8,206 bases of DNA, taken from NCBI GenBank assembly GCA_000004985.1, contig GG739080.1; one strand, 5' to 3'. Shown piece after piece: positions 190 to 8,206 of this stretch; position 1 is the stretch's first letter, and each line of letters starts with the position of its first letter. The translations under genes were made by a program, and so were the position numbers. The DNA comes from Naegleria gruberi (lineage: Eukaryota). The notes under the pieces were generated by a model. That model did no database searches. It saw nothing but the letters and a program-made list of their open reading frames with translations, and was not told the DNA's origin.

Positions 190-1104
190 ATGCCGATTGT
201 TAAAATATCAGACAATTTCTCTAAATCATTCAAATTTAAAAAAATGGGTCAACGAAACAGTCAAGATTTTGAAAATCATCATACGAATAATTCGGAGGAA
301 ATATTCACAATTCACCATAATAATATGGTGAAAGCAAAACAGAAGAAAAAATTTGTGAAACTCCAACGACAAGAAATATTTTCAGATGATATTTGTTTTG
401 AAATAATTTCAATGATTGATGATTCGTGGTTTATTTTAAATAATTGCGCTTTAATTTCAAAACAATTCTTTAATGTGATCAAGGAACGTTCAAAACTTGT
501 TATTCAATTTAAAAACAAATTTACAAAGAAAAGAATTAAATTATTCAAGAAAAGTCAATTTAGGAATAGTATTGTTAATGTTGAATTTTCTGGATATTTG
601 CTTGGCTCGAGAGAAAGAGTCAAATTCATTAGTGAAATGAAACAATTGACATCACTTGATATTTCTCACAATCTAATTGGTTATGAAGGAGCCAAATATA
701 TAAGTGAAATGAAACAACTAACATCACTTAATATATATTACAATCAAATTAGTGATAAAGGAGCCAAATATATAAGTGAAATGAAACAATTAATATTACT
801 TAATATTGGTAGCAATCGAATTGGTGATGAAGGAGCCAAATACATCAGTGAAATGAAACAATTAACATCACTTAATGTTTCTAACAATGAAATTCGTGAT
901 GAAGGAGCTAAATTCATCAGTGAAATGAAACAATTGACATCACTTAATGTTTATAAGAATCGAATTAGTGTAGAGGGAGCCAAATATATAAGTGAAATGA
1001 AACAATTAATATTACTTAATATTGGTAGCAATCGAATTAGTGATGAAGGAGCCAAATACATCAGTGAAATGAAACAATTAACATCGCTTCACACAACAAA
1101 TTAG
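190..1104 (+). CDS. F-box-like plus leucine-rich repeat (LRR, 24-aa unit) protein. The 3' end is truncated or altered by transposon insertion at about 1090, and the last codons HTTN-stop are read from the transposon terminus.
   Basis: Long ORF. The N-terminal segment IFSDDICFEIISMIDDSWFILNNCALISKQFFNVI fits the F-box pattern of hydrophobic residues. It is followed by 7 near-identical units of the form LTSLNIxxNxIxDEGAKYISEMKQ. LRR homology stops abruptly at 1090, where the transposon TIR begins. A possible alternative start is MGQRNSQ at 244. Confidence 0.7.
   Translation: MPIVKISDNFSKSFKFKKMGQRNSQDFENHHTNNSEEIFTIHHNNMVKAKQKKKFVKLQRQEIFSDDICFEIISMIDDSWFILNNCALISKQFFNVIKERSKLVIQFKNKFTKKRIKLFKKSQFRNSIVNVEFSGYLLGSRERVKFISEMKQLTSLDISHNLIGYEGAKYISEMKQLTSLNIYYNQISDKGAKYISEMKQLILLNIGSNRIGDEGAKYISEMKQLTSLNVSNNEIRDEGAKFISEMKQLTSLNVYKNRISVEGAKYISEMKQLILLNIGSNRISDEGAKYISEMKQLTSLHTTN
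631..1089 (+). repeat. Tandem array of 72-bp repeats, about 6.4 units, encoding the LRR units. Copies are near-identical at the nucleotide level.
   Basis: The motif agtgaaatgaaacaa recurs at 631, 703, 775, 847, 919, 991 and 1063, an exact 72-nt period. Units differ by only a few substitutions. Confidence 0.9.
1088..1090. repeat. Putative 3-bp target site duplication (TTC), left copy.
   Basis: TTC lies immediately outside the left TIR (1091). An identical TTC lies immediately outside the right TIR (7594-7596). TIR similarity ends exactly at these points. Confidence 0.4.
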
Positions 1105-1107
1105 CGG
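1091..1107 (+). repeat. Left terminal inverted repeat (ACACAACAAATTAGCGG).
   Basis: Matches the reverse complement of 7577-7593 at 16 of 17 positions. The terminus begins with a (A)CACAAC motif, loosely similar to CACTA-type ends. Confidence 0.75.
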
Positions 1108-1334
1108 TACGAATTGTGTTTGCGACCCCAGTATCGCATACTTGGGTCCCAATTTGGTATTTTAAAAAATACGCTTGCCACCAAGAGTAAGAACCACAAG
1201 TTATTCGCAGCCAACAAGCCGTTCCAAACACCATCACATCATCACAGAAATAATAATTATTTTCATCAACAAACAATCATTTATTAACTACAAATATTAA
1301 TAATTTTATATATTCTAGTATTATTAATAATCAA

Positions 1335-2354
1335 ATGATATCATTCCCTCCCAGACAGGTTGATCTTTTTGATAGTAATGTAATTGATGTTGATAAAACC
1401 ATATTTAATGAACAATTAATTAGAAGAATTAAAAACATCATCAAAATGGATATCGGAATAGATTGGAGAGGAACACATTTTAGACACAAAAATCACCTAG
1501 TTAAAGAGGAAGTATGTGATAGAACAAATTGGATTGTGTTATGTCCTAATGGACAGGTAGACATTGCTTTTTTTCCAAATGCTATTCCTGAAGAATTATG
1601 CTTGGAAATGGAGACTGTAGTTGCGAATAGTGATGTTGATATTTTAAGTTGTAAAAAGGCAATTATAGATGGATCATGGACAAGATATGGAAATGGAATT
1701 TATCCAGTTAAAACAATTACTACTAACCAAAGTATTCTATTACATGAATTGAATGATAAGTGTGGACCATTTGTTTTGGATAAGTTAAAACATATTAATA
1801 AGAATATGTTTAATAAGTTGGATAATATTAATGAGGATATTAAAAATTATAAAATTTTTGCTAAATACCCAACTTTAGCATTAAATGTATCTCATAATGA
1901 AAATTACAATATAAGTAAGAAACCATATCGCAAACACACTGATGGTAATGATATTGGATTAGGAGTATTAACATATTTCGGAAGTGAAATAATTGAAGGT
2001 GGCAATCTTATTATTCATATTGAGAACTTGAAAGTATTCAACTTTCCAATTCAAAGAAGGGATTTGGTATTTTTAAATTCTAAATTTTATGCTCACCAAG
2101 TTACTAAAGTGACCTCTGGAATAAGGTTTGGTTTAGTATATTTTGCTGGAGAAGCTCATTTCAGAGTTAGAAATAATGATGATTTTTTACCTGCTTTACC
2201 ATTTAATGCTAATGACAAAGAACTACGAGAAGAAAGATCCAAAAAAGGTAGAAAAAGTATGAATGAATACAAAAAAAGATTTTTAAAAAAGTACTTACGA
2301 GAAAAGAAAAAAATTAACAAAAAGAGAGTTAAATGTAAAAATAAATTGAAATAA
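1335..2354 (+). CDS. 2-oxoglutarate/Fe(II)-dependent dioxygenase, TET/JBP-like (putative nucleic-acid base oxygenase), with a lysine-rich C-terminal tail. Cargo gene of the transposon.
   Basis: 339-aa ORF. H201-T-D203 (RKHTDGND), then H254 (FYAHQV) 53 residues later, then R264 (GIRFGLVYF) 10 residues after that. This is the canonical HxD...H...R spacing of the double-stranded beta-helix 2OGFeDO fold. The last about 45 residues are highly basic (KKGRKSMNEYKKRFLKKYLREKKKINKKRVKCKNKLK), which suggests nucleic-acid binding or an NLS. The family assignment to TET/JBP rests on the motif pattern plus the transposon context. Confidence 0.6.
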   Translation: MISFPPRQVDLFDSNVIDVDKTIFNEQLIRRIKNIIKMDIGIDWRGTHFRHKNHLVKEEVCDRTNWIVLCPNGQVDIAFFPNAIPEELCLEMETVVANSDVDILSCKKAIIDGSWTRYGNGIYPVKTITTNQSILLHELNDKCGPFVLDKLKHINKNMFNKLDNINEDIKNYKIFAKYPTLALNVSHNENYNISKKPYRKHTDGNDIGLGVLTYFGSEIIEGGNLIIHIENLKVFNFPIQRRDLVFLNSKFYAHQVTKVTSGIRFGLVYFAGEAHFRVRNNDDFLPALPFNANDKELREERSKKGRKSMNEYKKRFLKKYLREKKKINKKRVKCKNKLK

Positions 2355-3468
2355 ATGTATAATAATTACAACATTGTTGTTGTTTCATACAGTGGTCAGC
2401 ACTGTTATTGGTAACAACACCATCTCCACCAAAGATGATGTTGTTGATGTTTCATACTTACAGATTGATTTCTCTTGTCAAACATTTGATATTATTCGCT
2501 TTCAAGAATCATAATTTCCTTAAAAAATAATATTCAATAATTGATTCGAGTCATTTGAATTCTCACACACTTTCTCCCTCTTCACCAAACTTGATTTCAA
2601 CAACAGTAACATCAGTGACATAATCATAGTTCCATAAACTGGAATACCATTTGTGCAATAGCAGCACGATTGTTAATTGCGTCTAAAAGAATGGTTGTAC
2701 AAATGTCAAATGTTAAATGGCTTAATTAACTAAAATACTTACCCTCTCTTTGGATGATTGAACTGGGTCGTCTCTAATCAGTGGTTTCTTGTTTTGGATA
2801 AGCATCGATAAGAGTTGGAGTATTATCATCAACTTGAGGATTATACAATAATTTCAAATTTAAATTACCTTTCACTTGTTGACCTTCGAATGGCTAGAGA
2901 AATATAAAAACCAAAAATGTCGTTTTACCTGATTCACTTGATGCTGTTGAAGTGCTGTTATTATCTTGTGGAACGATAGTTGTTGGTGTAATTGTGACTT
3001 GCTCTGTTTTAACAACAAGAGTTGTGACAGAAGTTGCTGGGGTCTTTGATAATATTATCTTTAGGATCAGTGGTTGAGTTCCAAAAACAAATACTGTTGT
3101 TGGTGTTGAGTGTAATGTCACTGAATGATGCTTCATGAAGCCATTTTAGGTGGTTCGGATGTTGTTGATATTTTGGCCACAACTTGATGGTGTTTCATGC
3201 TGTTGAGTAGAAGATTTTGATGTTGTAGCAGGTGTATATTTGATCAACAAAAGGAATCAATAATGGAGGGTTCGAAAATATTCTGATTGGCTGTACAATC
3301 AGAGTGTAAACGACTCAACAAAGGCTAAAACAACCACCAAGAACTTTAGAAGTATCTAACACCCATGTGATGGTGAGATACTCCACCTAGTTTTCTTGGC
3401 AAAAATTTTTAACCGCATTTTTTTTCTTTCAAATTTTTATTTCTTTTTACAACAGTTATGTAATACAT

Positions 3469-6400
3469 TCAATCATCAAAGTAGAAGTCTGCACACCCAA
3501 GTAAATCCTGCCAATCATATTGTTCGTCAACATAAGCATTTTGATTATATTGTTTAAAGAAGGAGGTGTCTAATAAAACATCATCTTCATCAGATTGTTC
3601 GTTCCGATTTATAATCGTATCGGAATAAGGAGGATGTGAATTAATGCTGTTTTGATAGGCTACCATTAGATTCAAAGTTTCAGTCATTAATAATTGGTTC
3701 TCAGGATAGTTTCTTTCAATGGAATTATTTGAATCAAATGAATTATTTTGGGTCATGAATGTGGGAGATGGAGCACTGGTAGTAAATGTAAAAGCAAGTT
3801 GTCGAGCCTCTTCATTCGTTAATGATTGATAACTTGATGGACTGTGGGAACCTATATTACAAACGGCAATAGGTGATTCGTATGAACCAGAATCAAATTG
3901 TAAAGGTGGTCTACTAATTTCAATGTTTCTTTCCCAGAAAGATTTAATGACACTACCAACCCTTAGTTCTAATCTTTTGAAGACCACATCTTCAGCAGTG
4001 AATGAAAGATATAAAATTCTAAATTTCTTAAACATAATTTGAGCTATTTGGTACAAATCATTCCAAGATGTTTCATTCGTTTTTTGAATTAGATTACTAT
4101 ATGTAAAATCAAGAAGCGTATCATTTCTAACATGGTCAATCAATGTGGAACTATCTTCAATCACATATTCATGAGGTTTGGATGTCTTTTTGGTCCCTAT
4201 ATTCATCTTTCCTCTACTCACACATCTTTCCATCAACCACCGATCATACTTATGACTGTGTTCAACAGCTTGATTGGAGAAGGGAACCAAGCTTCCAATT
4301 GTTGTCAATAATTCGAATAAATGGTTAACAACAATGTGAATGTAATCACCAACGGTTCCAGCTGATCTTCTTATTTCAGCAATTAAACCTCCCCATTCAC
4401 TAATTAAATTCTTCAGTTGGAAGAATTCATCACTTGATTTTGAATCAAGTTGTTCATTTGTGTAATATATCCATCTTCTAATTGTTCTCCATCCTTCCCA
4501 AATTTTCCAAATCTTTGGATGATCCTTTTTCACAAAGTCCAAAATTGAATCAATATGCCCAAATATTTTAGAACAATGACTCCCTGTGAACATAAATGAA
4601 TATTCTGAAATATTGAGTGCCTGCTCTTCTCTTTCCTTAACTGAGAAGGAAAATGAACCAAATCCATGAATCTTTTTAAGATTTCCCAATATTTGTGATT
4701 CGGATTTTGTGGATATTAGTGTCATCTTCATAATATATTCAGTGATTCTCTCATCCAAGTGAAGGATGCAAAAATAAATATTCTTAATTCCAAACTTATG
4801 ACCAATATCTCGATGTGAACAAACATCGCCATGTTCTAATGACATCACTGAATTTTCCCTTTCACAATCACAAAAAGCACAAAATTGACAATCATCTCTT
4901 AATATTGAAACGTAAGACAGTGATTTTAAGTCACTGACCCAATAGAATTCACAAGGAATTGTTACAGAATTTTTGATACCACTTTCGTTCAACTTTGGGA
5001 AACCAAGACTTGCATCATTTTTCTCATATTCAATACATAATCCTTGATTTGCAATTTCTTGCAATTCCTTCTCAAAGTCTTTCATATGATCCATAACCTC
5101 CGATTCCTCGCCAACAAACATGCAAATAGGAATTACAGATTTAGGATCCTGAGTTGCAAATGTTAACAAATTCAAAACTTGTAAAGTAACAACCACAGTT
5201 CTCAAGTTTCCAAATTCTCTACCGTCCATTGAAATCTTCCATTTCAAGTCTTCAGGTAAACAAACACCTTCCTTAATTGATTCAGTATGATGTACAACAT
5301 CATTCACAGGGAGGTTATGTTCTTTTCGAACACTAACTTGATGAAGGTGAGCTTTCGATATTGCCGTCATTAATGGAAGTAGGTTTGCTTTGAAACCATT
5401 TTTAACCTGATTTACATTAAAGTATTCCTGTACAATCTTGTTATACTTTTTGGTCTCTTCAGTTAAAGAAGCCTTCATATTGCCCTCTGATAACAAAACA
5501 ATTTCTTTGAAAGAGTAATCTGACAACCCCACCTCGTCTTTTGTTTTCAATTGCTTTTCTAAAGATGGGGTTTTTTTAGACAGATTCATTCGTTGTAACT
5601 CATTATAAGTCTTCTCATCAGCCACTGGATGTCTCTTACATGCCAAAAGAGCATTTAGTATACTCATTGCATGTGTCACATTTTTCCTAAAATAGGAAAG
5701 AAATATATGTGACAATTCAATGTTACATAAATTGGCTATTCCAGCAAATATTTCCATAAAATCCTCACATTTAGTTTTGGATTGTTCGAAACTATTATCT
5801 AAATCCGATCTCTTAACGCTATTATGAATTACTAAAGGTGTACGTTCACTATCATCTGAAACTAAGTTAATTTTTGCTAAATTAACTTTAGTATATTTCT
5901 TTTCATCAATTTTTCTAAAGCCCCCCAATTTTTCATTGATTACCTTAATAACTTGTTGTCTTCTTTCTTTTTTCCTTATTGTTTGATCATTTGGTTTGAA
6001 TTGTTTCGTTTTTTTTCGTTTCTTTTTTACCTCCTTTTCTTGAAGAATATTTCTTTCTGGTATCTTCAAATTCAGTGCCTTCTTCAAGTTTTCCTTATCA
6101 ATAACACTCACAGAGGTACTCTTTGATGTCGTTGTTCTTTTTCTCTTTTGCTTATTAGATGAATCATTATTTTGAGATTCGGTTGGTTGAATATTTTGGT
6201 CATTTAAATCAAGAGAATGTTGATCAGTTGTTTGGGATTCAGATGGTGGAATTTGGGTTGTTTGTTCAGATTGTTCATTTGTTTGAGACATAACTGGTCC
6301 ACAAGAAGAAATATGTTGAATATTATTTGAACTCATGTTTATTTCTACAAGTCTAAACAAAAGTTTCAAAATATTATCCTTGCGTTCAGGTTGTCTAAAC

Positions 6401-6612
6401 AACATCTCTACAGCCCATTGGAAATCAACATACAAACATTTCCGAGAGCATTCAATAAATCTTAAAGATCTTTCCAATTTATAGTTTGGGAATAACTTTG
6501 TGAAATTTCCTTTACAAATTTCGTTGAATTTAAAGAATTCCACATTATCTCTACAGATACAAGAAATTTCCTTCCCAATAATCTCTGCCAAGATCGATTT
6601 ATGGGAACTCAT
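3469..6612 (-). CDS. DDE-type (RNase H-fold) transposase-like protein with a Cys/His-rich insert, CACTA/Plavaka/KDZ-like. It has N-terminal CxC-containing and low-complexity regions, NLS-like basic tracts and an acidic C-terminus.
   Basis: 1047-aa uninterrupted ORF inside the TIR-bounded element. Candidate catalytic residues are D in WKISMDGREF, D in YWVSDLKSL and E in ILHLDERITEY. A metal-chelating cluster CQFCAFCDC...H..C.H...H lies between the second D and the E. Basic tracts KQKRKRTTTSK and KKKRKKTKQFK are present, with a Gln/Ser-rich region upstream and an acidic tail (SDEDDVLLD...FYFDD). Confidence 0.6.
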   Translation of the reverse strand: MSSHKSILAEIIGKEISCICRDNVEFFKFNEICKGNFTKLFPNYKLERSLRFIECSRKCLYVDFQWAVEMLFRQPERKDNILKLLFRLVEINMSSNNIQHISSCGPVMSQTNEQSEQTTQIPPSESQTTDQHSLDLNDQNIQPTESQNNDSSNKQKRKRTTTSKSTSVSVIDKENLKKALNLKIPERNILQEKEVKKKRKKTKQFKPNDQTIRKKERRQQVIKVINEKLGGFRKIDEKKYTKVNLAKINLVSDDSERTPLVIHNSVKRSDLDNSFEQSKTKCEDFMEIFAGIANLCNIELSHIFLSYFRKNVTHAMSILNALLACKRHPVADEKTYNELQRMNLSKKTPSLEKQLKTKDEVGLSDYSFKEIVLLSEGNMKASLTEETKKYNKIVQEYFNVNQVKNGFKANLLPLMTAISKAHLHQVSVRKEHNLPVNDVVHHTESIKEGVCLPEDLKWKISMDGREFGNLRTVVVTLQVLNLLTFATQDPKSVIPICMFVGEESEVMDHMKDFEKELQEIANQGLCIEYEKNDASLGFPKLNESGIKNSVTIPCEFYWVSDLKSLSYVSILRDDCQFCAFCDCERENSVMSLEHGDVCSHRDIGHKFGIKNIYFCILHLDERITEYIMKMTLISTKSESQILGNLKKIHGFGSFSFSVKEREEQALNISEYSFMFTGSHCSKIFGHIDSILDFVKKDHPKIWKIWEGWRTIRRWIYYTNEQLDSKSSDEFFQLKNLISEWGGLIAEIRRSAGTVGDYIHIVVNHLFELLTTIGSLVPFSNQAVEHSHKYDRWLMERCVSRGKMNIGTKKTSKPHEYVIEDSSTLIDHVRNDTLLDFTYSNLIQKTNETSWNDLYQIAQIMFKKFRILYLSFTAEDVVFKRLELRVGSVIKSFWERNIEISRPPLQFDSGSYESPIAVCNIGSHSPSSYQSLTNEEARQLAFTFTTSAPSPTFMTQNNSFDSNNSIERNYPENQLLMTETLNLMVAYQNSINSHPPYSDTIINRNEQSDEDDVLLDTSFFKQYNQNAYVDEQYDWQDLLGCADFYFDD

Positions 6613-6745
6613 GTATTGAGTTTTTTTTTTAAATTTTGAAACGTAACGGTAATTAATTTAATATAAAATAATCAGTGAGTTATTGACATGAAATATTATT
6701 AAAGAGATTATATAAAATTTAAAAAGAAATAATTTATTGATATTA

Positions 6746-7384
6746 TTAAATCAATTCCCAACAATTATTTAGATAATTAAAATGTTCTTTGACAATCTCG
6801 TACTTTGCAAAAACTAGGTTGGTAACTGGATTACAAAAGAATTCCAAATAAACAAATCTAACTCTGTAAACATCACATCTAGGTTCATACTGATACATAT
6901 TTCGGGTGTTATTGTATACTCTTTGGTTAGTGTACACATTCCAAGTAACTCCATGATATGCTTTCTTATTACCCAAACTAGGAAGATTATCGAATCCTAT
7001 GAAACTAAAAGAAGGACAATTCACAGTTATTATTTGGCCATTGAAATGCATAAATTGTTTTCTAGGATCGTTCACAACATGATTTTCTACTCTACTGAAG
7101 TAGGAAACAAAGTATTCAACTGTCAACCCACCAATGAATATCTTATCTTGGTATCTCTTGTGAATGGAAGGATTAAGACAAAAACCAAGTAGAATAGAAG
7201 CATTCTCACAAAACATTTCCAAACAACAAGCTTGTTTCATACGATACACTGGAGTCTTCATTACTGGCTCCTCTAATGGAACAAACTCTGCTGTAAACTT
7301 GGTGTTCTTGTTCTTTGATGCTTCATAAATAAACCACTTGGCTTCTGTTTTGGCATTAATTACTTTACGGTCTGTATTTTGCAA
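6746..7384 (-). CDS. Hypothetical protein (212 aa), third gene inside the transposon, upstream of and co-oriented with the transposase.
   Basis: Clean ORF of 639 nt between the right subterminal region and the transposase gene. Several Cys/His residues are present but no motif I can assign. An overlapping antisense ORF (6923-7192) is shorter and considered spurious. Confidence 0.4.
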   Translation of the reverse strand: MQNTDRKVINAKTEAKWFIYEASKNKNTKFTAEFVPLEEPVMKTPVYRMKQACCLEMFCENASILLGFCLNPSIHKRYQDKIFIGGLTVEYFVSYFSRVENHVVNDPRKQFMHFNGQIITVNCPSFSFIGFDNLPSLGNKKAYHGVTWNVYTNQRVYNNTRNMYQYEPRCDVYRVRFVYLEFFCNPVTNLVFAKYEIVKEHFNYLNNCWELI

Positions 7385-7576
7385 GTTAGAGGATAAATAA
7401 ATAATAGTAACTTACTAGGTTTGTTATTATTGTTGTTTGTTGAACGTTTAGTCATTGTGTATTTGTTTTTGATTGTTGTGTATTATCCTACCAAGTCTAC
7501 CTGCGTGGGATGAGTTAGCTTCATAGTGTATTTTCATTTTTTTTTGCGTCTAAAACACAAAACGTGCCACTAGCCT

Positions 7577-7593
7577 CCGTTAATTTGTTGTGT
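7577..7593 (-). repeat. Right terminal inverted repeat (reverse complement ACACAACAAATTAACGG).
   Basis: 16/17 match to the left TIR. It is immediately followed by TTC and then by resumption of LRR-unit homology (gtttctcacaatcgaattagtgatgaagg). Confidence 0.75.
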
Positions 7594-7596
7594 TTC
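7594..7596. repeat. Putative 3-bp target site duplication (TTC), right copy.
   Basis: Identical to 1088-1090, directly abutting the right TIR. Confidence 0.4.
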
Positions 7597-7597
7597 T

Positions 7598-8091
7598 CAC
7601 AATCGAATTAGTGATGAAGGGGCCAAATATATAAATGAAATGAAACAACTAACATCACTTAATATTGGTTACAATGAAATTACTGTTGAAGGAGCTAAAT
7701 TCATCAGTGAAATGAAACAATTGACATCACTTTGTATTTATAACAATGAAATTAGTGATAAAGGAGCCAAATATTTAAGTGAAATGAAACAATTAACATC
7801 ACTTAATGTTTCTAACAATGAAACTAGTGATGAAGGAGCCAAACACATCAGTGAAATGAAACAATTAACATCGCTTTATATTTATGACAATCAAATTGGT
7901 GATAAAGGAGCTAAATATATAAGTGAAATGAAACAACTAACATCACTTAATATTGGTTACAATGAAATTAGTGATGAAGGGGCCAAATACATAAGTGAAA
8001 TGAAACAACTGACATTACTTTATATTTATAACAATGAAATTAGTGATAAAGGAGCCAAATATTTAAGTGAAATGAAACAATTAACATCACT
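7598..8091 (+). repeat. Second tandem array of the 72-bp LRR-coding repeat, about 6.9 units.
   Basis: The repeat-unit landmark agtgaaatgaaacaa (aatgaaatgaaacaa in the first unit) recurs at 7634, 7706, 7778, 7850, 7922, 7994 and 8066, a 72-nt period. It is near-identical to the units at 631-1089. Confidence 0.9.
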
Positions 8092-8206
8092 AAGAAAATA
8101 AGCTGATTGTACAGTAACACATCAGCAAACTTTTAACCATATCACGATGAGCGCCTCAAAGAATCATCGGGCCACATCAGTATGGTTCAGTATGGCTTGG
8201 TGTTTA

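Follow-up and report, generated by a model that had tools for sequence, protein, structure and literature searches.

We analysed a stretch of 8,206 nucleotides from contig GG739080.1 of the Naegleria gruberi assembly GCA_000004985.1 (the whole stretch is called the window below), in which a long open reading frame (ORF) lies on the minus strand at 3469-6612. This ORF very probably encodes the transposase, of RAG1-core architecture and assignable to the CMCT (EnSpm/CACTA-Mirage-Chapaev-Transib) clade, of an autonomous cut-and-paste N. gruberi transposon of about 6.5 kb. The complete element reaches from one terminal inverted repeat (TIR) to the other (1090-7592) and holds, besides the transposase gene, a Tet gene and a small partner gene. 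Within the CMCT/RAG1-like transposons it stands for a new, heterolobosean lineage that has a conserved partner and a Tet cargo, and it was apparently active recently. An earlier note on this DNA, made from the letters alone, had recognised the right kind of protein, i.e., a DDE (Asp-Asp-Glu) transposase with an internal zinc module, but it named the wrong family and the wrong third catalytic residue.

The transposase ORF is intact and conserved

The ORF runs through 1047 codons without interruption, just as the earlier note had stated. Since the chance of so many stop-free codons is about 1e-37 at the composition of the window (31% G+C), we regard it as a real coding sequence. It falls in the cluster of NAEGRDRAFT_76677, which is annotated as 'predicted protein' with a model of 955 amino acids (aa). 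The protein is kept in Naegleria lovaniensis, Willaertia magna and metagenomic relatives, and the claim that it is eukaryotic was borne out. As to its being potentially functional, the ORF is indeed intact, and purifying selection between copies of the element (see below) suggests function.

Close homologues are few and come from W. magna, N. lovaniensis and two ENA metagenome contigs (32-39% identity). An exhaustive profile search yielded 215 cluster representatives at E <= 1e-3, among them N. gruberi paralogues and one Pharyngomonas kirbyi transcript. A word-index search with a 42-sequence profile added almost no further relatives, and exact-protein look-ups with the N. gruberi paralogues and the window proteins led to no further contigs. 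Scans of JGI metagenomes with a protein pattern and with the terminal sequence found neither relatives nor extra copies, the two DNA matches being due to chance.

Catalytic residues and the zinc module align with those of RAG1

Conservation was counted in a 42-sequence alignment of family relatives. RAG1 positions are given in the established RAG1 numbering, the aligned ones being D708, C727/C730, H937/H942 and E962. The sequence motifs on which the earlier note had built its assignment are all present: ISMDGREF at aa 460, WVSDLKS at aa 558, HLDERITEY at aa 618 and a Cys/His stretch at aa 575-607. Both aspartates that it took to be catalytic are supported by the alignment. D463, in the SMDGR motif (5224-5226, minus strand), is conserved in 41 of the 42 relatives, while D561, in W(V/I)SDL (4930-4932, minus strand), is present in all 42 and aligns with RAG1 D708. 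The third residue had been sought in HLDERITEY, where E621 is conserved in 11/42 and E625 in 26/42, whereas the invariant glutamate (42/42) is E784. This residue lies 160 residues beyond the one proposed, in a SNQAVEHSH motif (4261-4263, minus strand), and aligns with the E of RAG1 EGNES. HLDERITEY itself belongs to a C615-x2-H618...R622 motif (4738-4770, minus strand), whose C, H and R are conserved (39/42, 42/42 and 39/42, respectively) and whose acidic residues are not (D620, for example, in 5/42).

The dense metal-binding cluster that had been placed after the second D and before the E stands only in part. C578 (42/42) and C581 (41/42) form the C(2)C half of a module (C578-x2-C581; 4870-4881, minus strand) that aligns with RAG1 C727/C730, but C583 (19/42) and H605 (8/42) are poorly conserved, and C575 already varies within the set of four close homologues. 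The second, H(4)H half, H759-x4-H764 (4321-4338, minus strand), has both histidines in 42/42 relatives and aligns with RAG1 H937/H942; H764 precedes E784 by 20 residues. Y757 is likewise conserved in 42/42. Together, C578/C581 and H759/H764 would be expected to bind zinc.

The profile of the 42 sequences matched zebrafish RAG1 (E 1.1e-9), amphioxus RAG1L (E 1.5e-9) and HzTransib (E 0.012), as well as many mouse RAG1 chains. In these alignments W(V/I)SDL...FCxxC corresponds to RAG1 GYDEK...CTLC, and YIHIVVNH...GSL...SNQAVEHSHK to YLHKTLAH...GSI...SEGNESGNK. The RAG1 Pfam model (PF12940) matched 5/42 relatives in the D/C/H/E region, the best at E 1.9e-7 and 30.1 bits, which is the sole match above the curated cut-off of 25. 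The CMCT clade is defined by C(2)C and H(3-4)H motifs and by CA...TG termini (PMC12730594), and we assign the transposase to it because its closest relatives, in sequence and in structure, are RAG1, RAG1L and Transib.

An N-terminal CxC zinc domain, which had been suspected as well, did not hold up. The strings are there (ISCICRDN at aa 16, CKGN at aa 33 and CSRKC at aa 55), but no N-terminal cysteine is conserved, even among the four closest homologues, which in their first 100 residues share only M1, Y61 and K78. The window protein gave no significant sequence match in Pfam, PHROGs or PDB. In the Pfam copy searched, which presumably included the KDZ and CxC models, neither the window protein (E up to 1) nor any of the 42 relatives (E up to 0.1) matched KDZ or CxC, and the Plavaka and MULE models matched none of them either. 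Transposase_21 gave a single match, that of the relative from N. lovaniensis, which at E 0.0079 and 15.9 bits stays below the cut-off of 28.6. As no model was matched and the N-terminal cysteines are not conserved, the KDZ/CxC reading is unsupported. Of the wider assignment to Mutator/CACTA/KDZ-type transposases, what stands is the architecture, common to CACTA-type elements, while KDZ and MULE are the parts for which Pfam gave no match.

The predicted structure has the architecture of the RAG1 core

A usable AlphaFold2 model was obtained only with the 42-sequence alignment. With four sequences the pLDDT was 40, while the model of aa 225-900 built from 42 sequences reached a pLDDT of 82 and a pTM of 0.80. 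The RAG1-core-like region, aa 271-874 (3991-5802, minus strand), is confidently modelled, and the predicted model shows the three-dimensional architecture of the RAG1 core. In a Foldseek search the first 40 matches were all RAG1 chains, with E values down to 1.6e-11 over about 580-670 aligned columns, and HzTransib came next (E 3e-5). The viral structure library gave no structural match.

In the model, D463 is found in beta-1 (strand 232-243, model numbering), D561 directly after beta-4, and E784 in helix 557-573 (model numbering). This modelled placement is the canonical DDE topology, i.e., the order beta1-D, beta4-D, helix-E that the earlier note had suggested looking for, and it provides the DDE triad on an RNase H-like fold that is characteristic of the CMCT clade.

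The transposase gene lies in a complete element with inverted termini

The left TIR of the element, CACAACAAATTAGCGG (1092-1107, plus strand), matches at 15/16 positions the inverted CCGTTAATTTGTTGTG of the right end (7577-7592, minus strand; reverse complement CACAACAAATTAACGG), where the element ends in ...GTTGTG. In the window copy an extra CA stands before the left TIR (1090-1091). Allowing for a 10-bp insertion in the right end, an imperfect TIR can be followed to about 45 bp. Both in the window and in L005, a further copy described below, the termini are of the form that CMCT elements have, 5'-CA..TG-3', often CAC..GTG, with TIRs.

Two further copies came from run ERR1078381: L005, an 11.4-kb ENA contig, and L004, a Logan contig. 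Window positions 1092-7592 match L005 positions 11174-4663 with 99.4% identity, and the match is confined to that block; the L005 ends also read CACAAC...GTTGTG, and both flanks are unrelated to those of the window. The shared block thus stops exactly at the inverted termini. L004 has a third, different right flank next to the same element end, and the coding changes it carries are not the ones found in L005. The three copies are 99.4-99.9% identical, and each copy seen has all three ORFs intact. The transposase genes of the window and L005 are set apart by 6 synonymous and 3 non-synonymous differences (P = 0.003 under neutrality). Divergence between copies is greatest in the 1.1-kb spacer (2355-3468) that separates the convergent Tet and transposase genes, with 10 substitutions and indels; no RNA family, tRNA or convincing ORF was found in it.

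The element interrupts a host gene of leucine-rich repeats (LRR). The 5' part of this gene, with 72-nt repeats, occupies 190-1089 on the plus strand, and the same array resumes directly past the right terminus (7593-8101, plus strand), so that it halts at 1089 and restarts at 7593. Taken together, the TIRs, the near-identical copies in several contexts, the insertion in the LRR array, the intact ORFs and the selection on them lead us to conclude that this is a recently mobile autonomous element.

A Tet dioxygenase gene is carried as cargo

A 339-aa ORF at 1335-2354 on the plus strand encodes an Fe(II)/2-oxoglutarate dioxygenase of the Tet/JBP family. It lies 245 bp from the left end, convergent with the transposase gene, and is 100% identical to the N. 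gruberi 'predicted protein' NAEGRDRAFT_76676 (XP_002668409.1, a 302-aa model). Against the deposited sequences of the NgTet1 structures 5cg8/4lt5 the protein gave a match of E 3e-12, in which HxD, H and R line up. The active site is intact: H201, D203, H254 and R264 are invariant in comparison with the W. magna and metagenomic homologues. That residue comparison also included an NgTet1 row, entered by hand.

The Tet gene is located between the TIRs, is part of the 99.4% block in L005 and has the same position and orientation in L004. Because it is both inside the TIRs and inside the block shared with L004 and L005, we consider it cargo of the element. Related transposase loci have no Tet gene within 10 kb, and Tet homologues elsewhere (in W. 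magna and on a Logan contig) do not adjoin a related transposase, so the capture is particular to this N. gruberi element. DNA transposons with TET/JBP genes inside them are known from eleven lineages, all fungal (Kojima 2025, PMC12730594). Several of these carriers are CMCT members, and the role proposed for the cargo is escape from methylation-based silencing (PMC12730594). In the library of papers searched, we found none that links Naegleria Tet genes or these accessions to transposons, though Repbase may already have an entry for the element.

A small partner gene accompanies the transposase gene

Directly upstream of the transposase gene, on the same strand, lies a partner gene (6746-7455, minus strand), here called SMALL, which encodes 221 aa after splicing. 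As read, its ORF starts with TTG; a 44-nt intron (7415-7372, GTAAGT...ACAG) joins an ATG exon (exon 1, 7455-7416) to exon 2 (7371-6746). The spliced product, MTKRSTNNNNNKPNRKVINAK..., agrees with the N-termini of the homologues, in which the intron is at another position. The pair of genes, with SMALL upstream on the same strand, is kept in W. magna, N. lovaniensis and two metagenomic contigs. Neither Pfam nor PDB gave a relative of SMALL, even with a five-sequence profile. The protein may be an accessory or DNA-binding subunit.

Weighing the evidence

Several observations weigh against the interpretation given above. The window protein alone and a four-sequence profile matched neither RAG1 nor a transposase model of Pfam, and in PDB the profile found nothing; the link to RAG1 needs the wider family and the predicted structure. 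In the W. magna and N. lovaniensis loci, Tet and transposase genes are not linked. No clean target-site duplication (TSD) of 2-5 bp is seen at the junctions in the window, L005 or L004. The window flanks read ..GCTT(CA)| and |TTTCTCAC, and those of L005, ...TTTTC| and |ACATG, show no match. Measured against the LRR register, the host sequence falls 2 nt short of a perfect repeat even if no duplication is assumed, so the insertion site is not cleanly reconstructable. A 2-bp TT duplication would bring the LRR array back into frame, but only when the extra CA is counted with the element. The readings TT, TTC, TCAC and none were considered for the TSD, and the junctions establish none of them. In addition, the extra copies come from short-read metagenome assemblies, L005 included, which may have joined flanks of different copies.

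The absence of a clear TSD would also suit a different history, in which SMALL and the transposase gene (BIG) are a domesticated, immobile RAG1-like pair of host genes and the shared block is a segmental duplication. Intact ORFs under purifying selection would fit such a pair, and SMALL and BIG keep their synteny in N. lovaniensis and W. magna, at loci in which no TIRs were found. Against this history stands a shared block that ends precisely at 16-nt CAC...GTG inverted termini, occurs in two or three unrelated contexts at the least, in copies that are 99.4-99.9% identical, and interrupts an LRR repeat array. We consider domestication quite unlikely. It is very unlikely, in turn, that the Tet gene is a host gene which came to stand beside the transposase gene by chance or mis-assembly. 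The Tet homologues of W. magna and of the Logan contig that do not adjoin a related transposase, together with the related transposase loci that have no Tet within 10 kb, would be in line with such an accident, but the gene lies between the two TIRs, within the 99.4% block, and two independent assemblies (L005 and L004) show it in the same position and orientation.

The assignment of the earlier note, a KDZ (Kyakuja-Dileera-Zisupton) or Plavaka/MULE-type transposase whose N-terminus bears a KDZ-associated CxC zinc domain and whose catalytic glutamate is E621/E625, is superficially compatible with the order D-D-Cys/His-E, and a TET/JBP gene beside the transposase is what fungal KDZ and Plavaka elements typically have (PMC12730594). 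Against it speak the lack of any KDZ, CxC, Plavaka or MULE match in Pfam for the window protein and its 42 relatives, the N-terminal cysteines that vary among close homologues, and the conservation of E784 in place of E621 or E625. This assignment is largely refuted, and we hold it to be extremely improbable. A bolder extension of our interpretation would see the element as a living protist counterpart of RAG/ProtoRAG, with the partner as a RAG2-like cofactor, 12/23-like pairing of the ends and a Tet protein that erases methylation. In such a counterpart, the transposase would need the 221-aa partner, analogous to RAG2 in function but unrelated to it, and the spacing between CACAAC and a subterminal block, which differs by 10 bp between the two ends, would enforce 12/23-like pairing. 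Taken jointly, these propositions appear to us unlikely. A mobile CMCT transposon with a RAG1-like transposase remains our preferred interpretation.

Proposed mechanism of transposition

For such a transposon, a course of events may be proposed by analogy with RAG1 and Transib. The transposase has a predicted RNase H-fold catalytic domain with the triad D463/D561/E784, and a predicted zinc module, C578-x2-C581 plus H759-x4-H764. It would bind the two slightly different ends and nick the DNA at the CAC termini; the element would then be released, probably through hairpins formed on the flanking DNA, and its 3'-OH ends would be inserted into a new target. The Tet protein could oxidise 5-methylcytosine and so shield the element from methylation-based silencing, as has been proposed for the fungal transposons that carry TET genes.

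Comparison with known systems

The DDE triad of the Naegleria protein is equivalent to that of RAG1 and of ProtoRAG RAG1L, and the distance from H(4)H to the E is exactly 20 residues in both. The C(2)C motif lies 17 residues past the second D, compared with 19 in RAG1, and the element termini begin with CAC, as does the heptamer of the recombination signal sequence. Unlike these systems, the Naegleria transposase shares only 10-14% identity with RAG1/RAG1L, and the RING and N-terminal domains of RAG1 were not detected in it. The element has no RAG2-like kelch partner and carries the unrelated 221-aa protein instead, its host is a heterolobosean amoeba, and the RAG1 Pfam model does not match the window protein directly. 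With Transib (Helicoverpa zea, PDB 6pqn) the protein shares the DDE triad, the C2/H2 zinc module and a long insertion domain, and the TIRs of both start with CAC. The Naegleria protein is, however, twice as long and nearer to RAG1 in structure searches; moreover, no 5-bp TSD was seen at the window or L005 junctions, and the Naegleria element has two extra genes.

Termini of the form 5'-CAC...GTG-3' are shared with EnSpm/CACTA, Mirage and Chapaev, and the presence of more than one gene per element is shared with En/Spm (TnpA and TnpD). The weak Transposase_21 match of the N. lovaniensis relative and the Ulp1 domains of two distant relatives recall CMC elements, but no member of the family passes the Transposase_21 threshold, and the expected TSD of 2-3 bp is not clearly present. 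As in the fungal TET/JBP transposons (Plavaka, ESTA, EnSpm and KDZ, among others; PMC12730594), the dioxygenase gene lies inside the termini, and several of those carriers belong, like the Naegleria element, to the CMCT clade (PMC12730594). The ESTA transposases, too, are tied to RAG1 only by profile methods (PMC12730594). The Naegleria element differs in its heterolobosean host and in a Tet of the NgTet type. Its termini and flanks fit neither ESTA (TA as TSD) nor Plavaka (TGT..ACA or CATCA..TGATG), and the Plavaka Pfam model does not match the transposase. KDZ elements with CxC domains are comparable as large eukaryotic DDE transposases, often linked to TET/JBP genes, but profile support for them and a conserved N-terminal CxC are both lacking in the Naegleria protein.

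Implications for Naegleria and for the RAG1/Transib lineage

The analysis offers a function and a structural model for a 'predicted protein' of the N. gruberi reference genome, as well as for a family without annotation, whose more than 200 clustered relatives fall under no Pfam model. It adds to CMCT a heterolobosean lineage with the full RAG1-core architecture, by which the history of RAG1 and Transib could be rooted outside animals. A TET/JBP dioxygenase inside a DNA transposon outside fungi argues that TET capture is a recurrent anti-silencing strategy, and some members of the Tet gene family in Naegleria may be cargo of transposons. Because the copies look recently active (99.4-99.9% identity, intact ORFs, purifying selection), the element could become a genetic tool for Naegleria. 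If the resemblance to RAG/ProtoRAG did extend to partner, ends and Tet, asymmetric-end synapsis and a two-subunit organisation would predate or recur outside Metazoa, and at least one well-known Naegleria Tet paralogue would be a transposon passenger.

Further observations on the element and its relatives

The two element ends (1092-1135 and 7548-7592) share, besides the terminal CACAAC, a subterminal block TAGYGGYACG..TTGTGTTT. This block is 4 nt from the left terminus and 14 nt from the right one, a 10-bp difference of about one helical turn; that it recalls the 12/23 asymmetry of RAG and Transib ends is purely speculative. The number of terminal CA/TG units varies between copies: the left end of the window reads CACACAAC and that of L005 CACAAC, while the right end of L004 (117-124) reads GTTGTGTG compared with GTTGTG in the window. 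Positions 1-22 and 6374-6395 of L004 are Illumina adapter, so its extreme ends are not genomic. L005 has K at Q488 (window 5149-5151), where 40/42 family members, the window and L004 keep Q; the L005 copy may be slightly impaired or carry a sequencing variant. The search for TIRs in the W. magna, N. lovaniensis and metagenomic loci returned nothing convincing, and matches to CACAACAAATT in contigs L001 and L003 were dismissed as TIRs since they lie in coding or low-complexity sequence. The host gene that the element interrupts encodes 24-residue LRRs (GAKYISEMKQLTSLNI...), which agrees with its 72-nt DNA periodicity.

The public gene models are shorter than the ORFs (955 compared with 1047 aa for the transposase, 302 compared with 339 aa for Tet), which suggests that the annotation has spurious introns or wrong start codons. 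The Tet homologue of W. magna (contig L007, JBEGDK010000074.1, 10001-11056) is 40% identical and lies about 0.9 kb from the contig end, where there may be a repeat; the 10 kb covered there hold no related transposase. In L003 (ENA ERZ27254845), which holds a metagenomic relative of the element, a divergent H3-like core histone gene (1528-1914; Pfam Histone, E 8e-39) has the partner gene (371-993) on one side and the transposase gene (1925-5137) on the other, and it may be another chromatin-related cargo. Among the distant relatives, two on Logan contigs (P0012 and P0013) have a C-terminal Ulp1 (Peptidase_C48) protease domain, P0048 has a fungal Zn2Cys6 domain, and P0031 and P0089 match the nematode family DUF1280. 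Judging from these domains, the wider family spans several eukaryotic groups with varied fusions.

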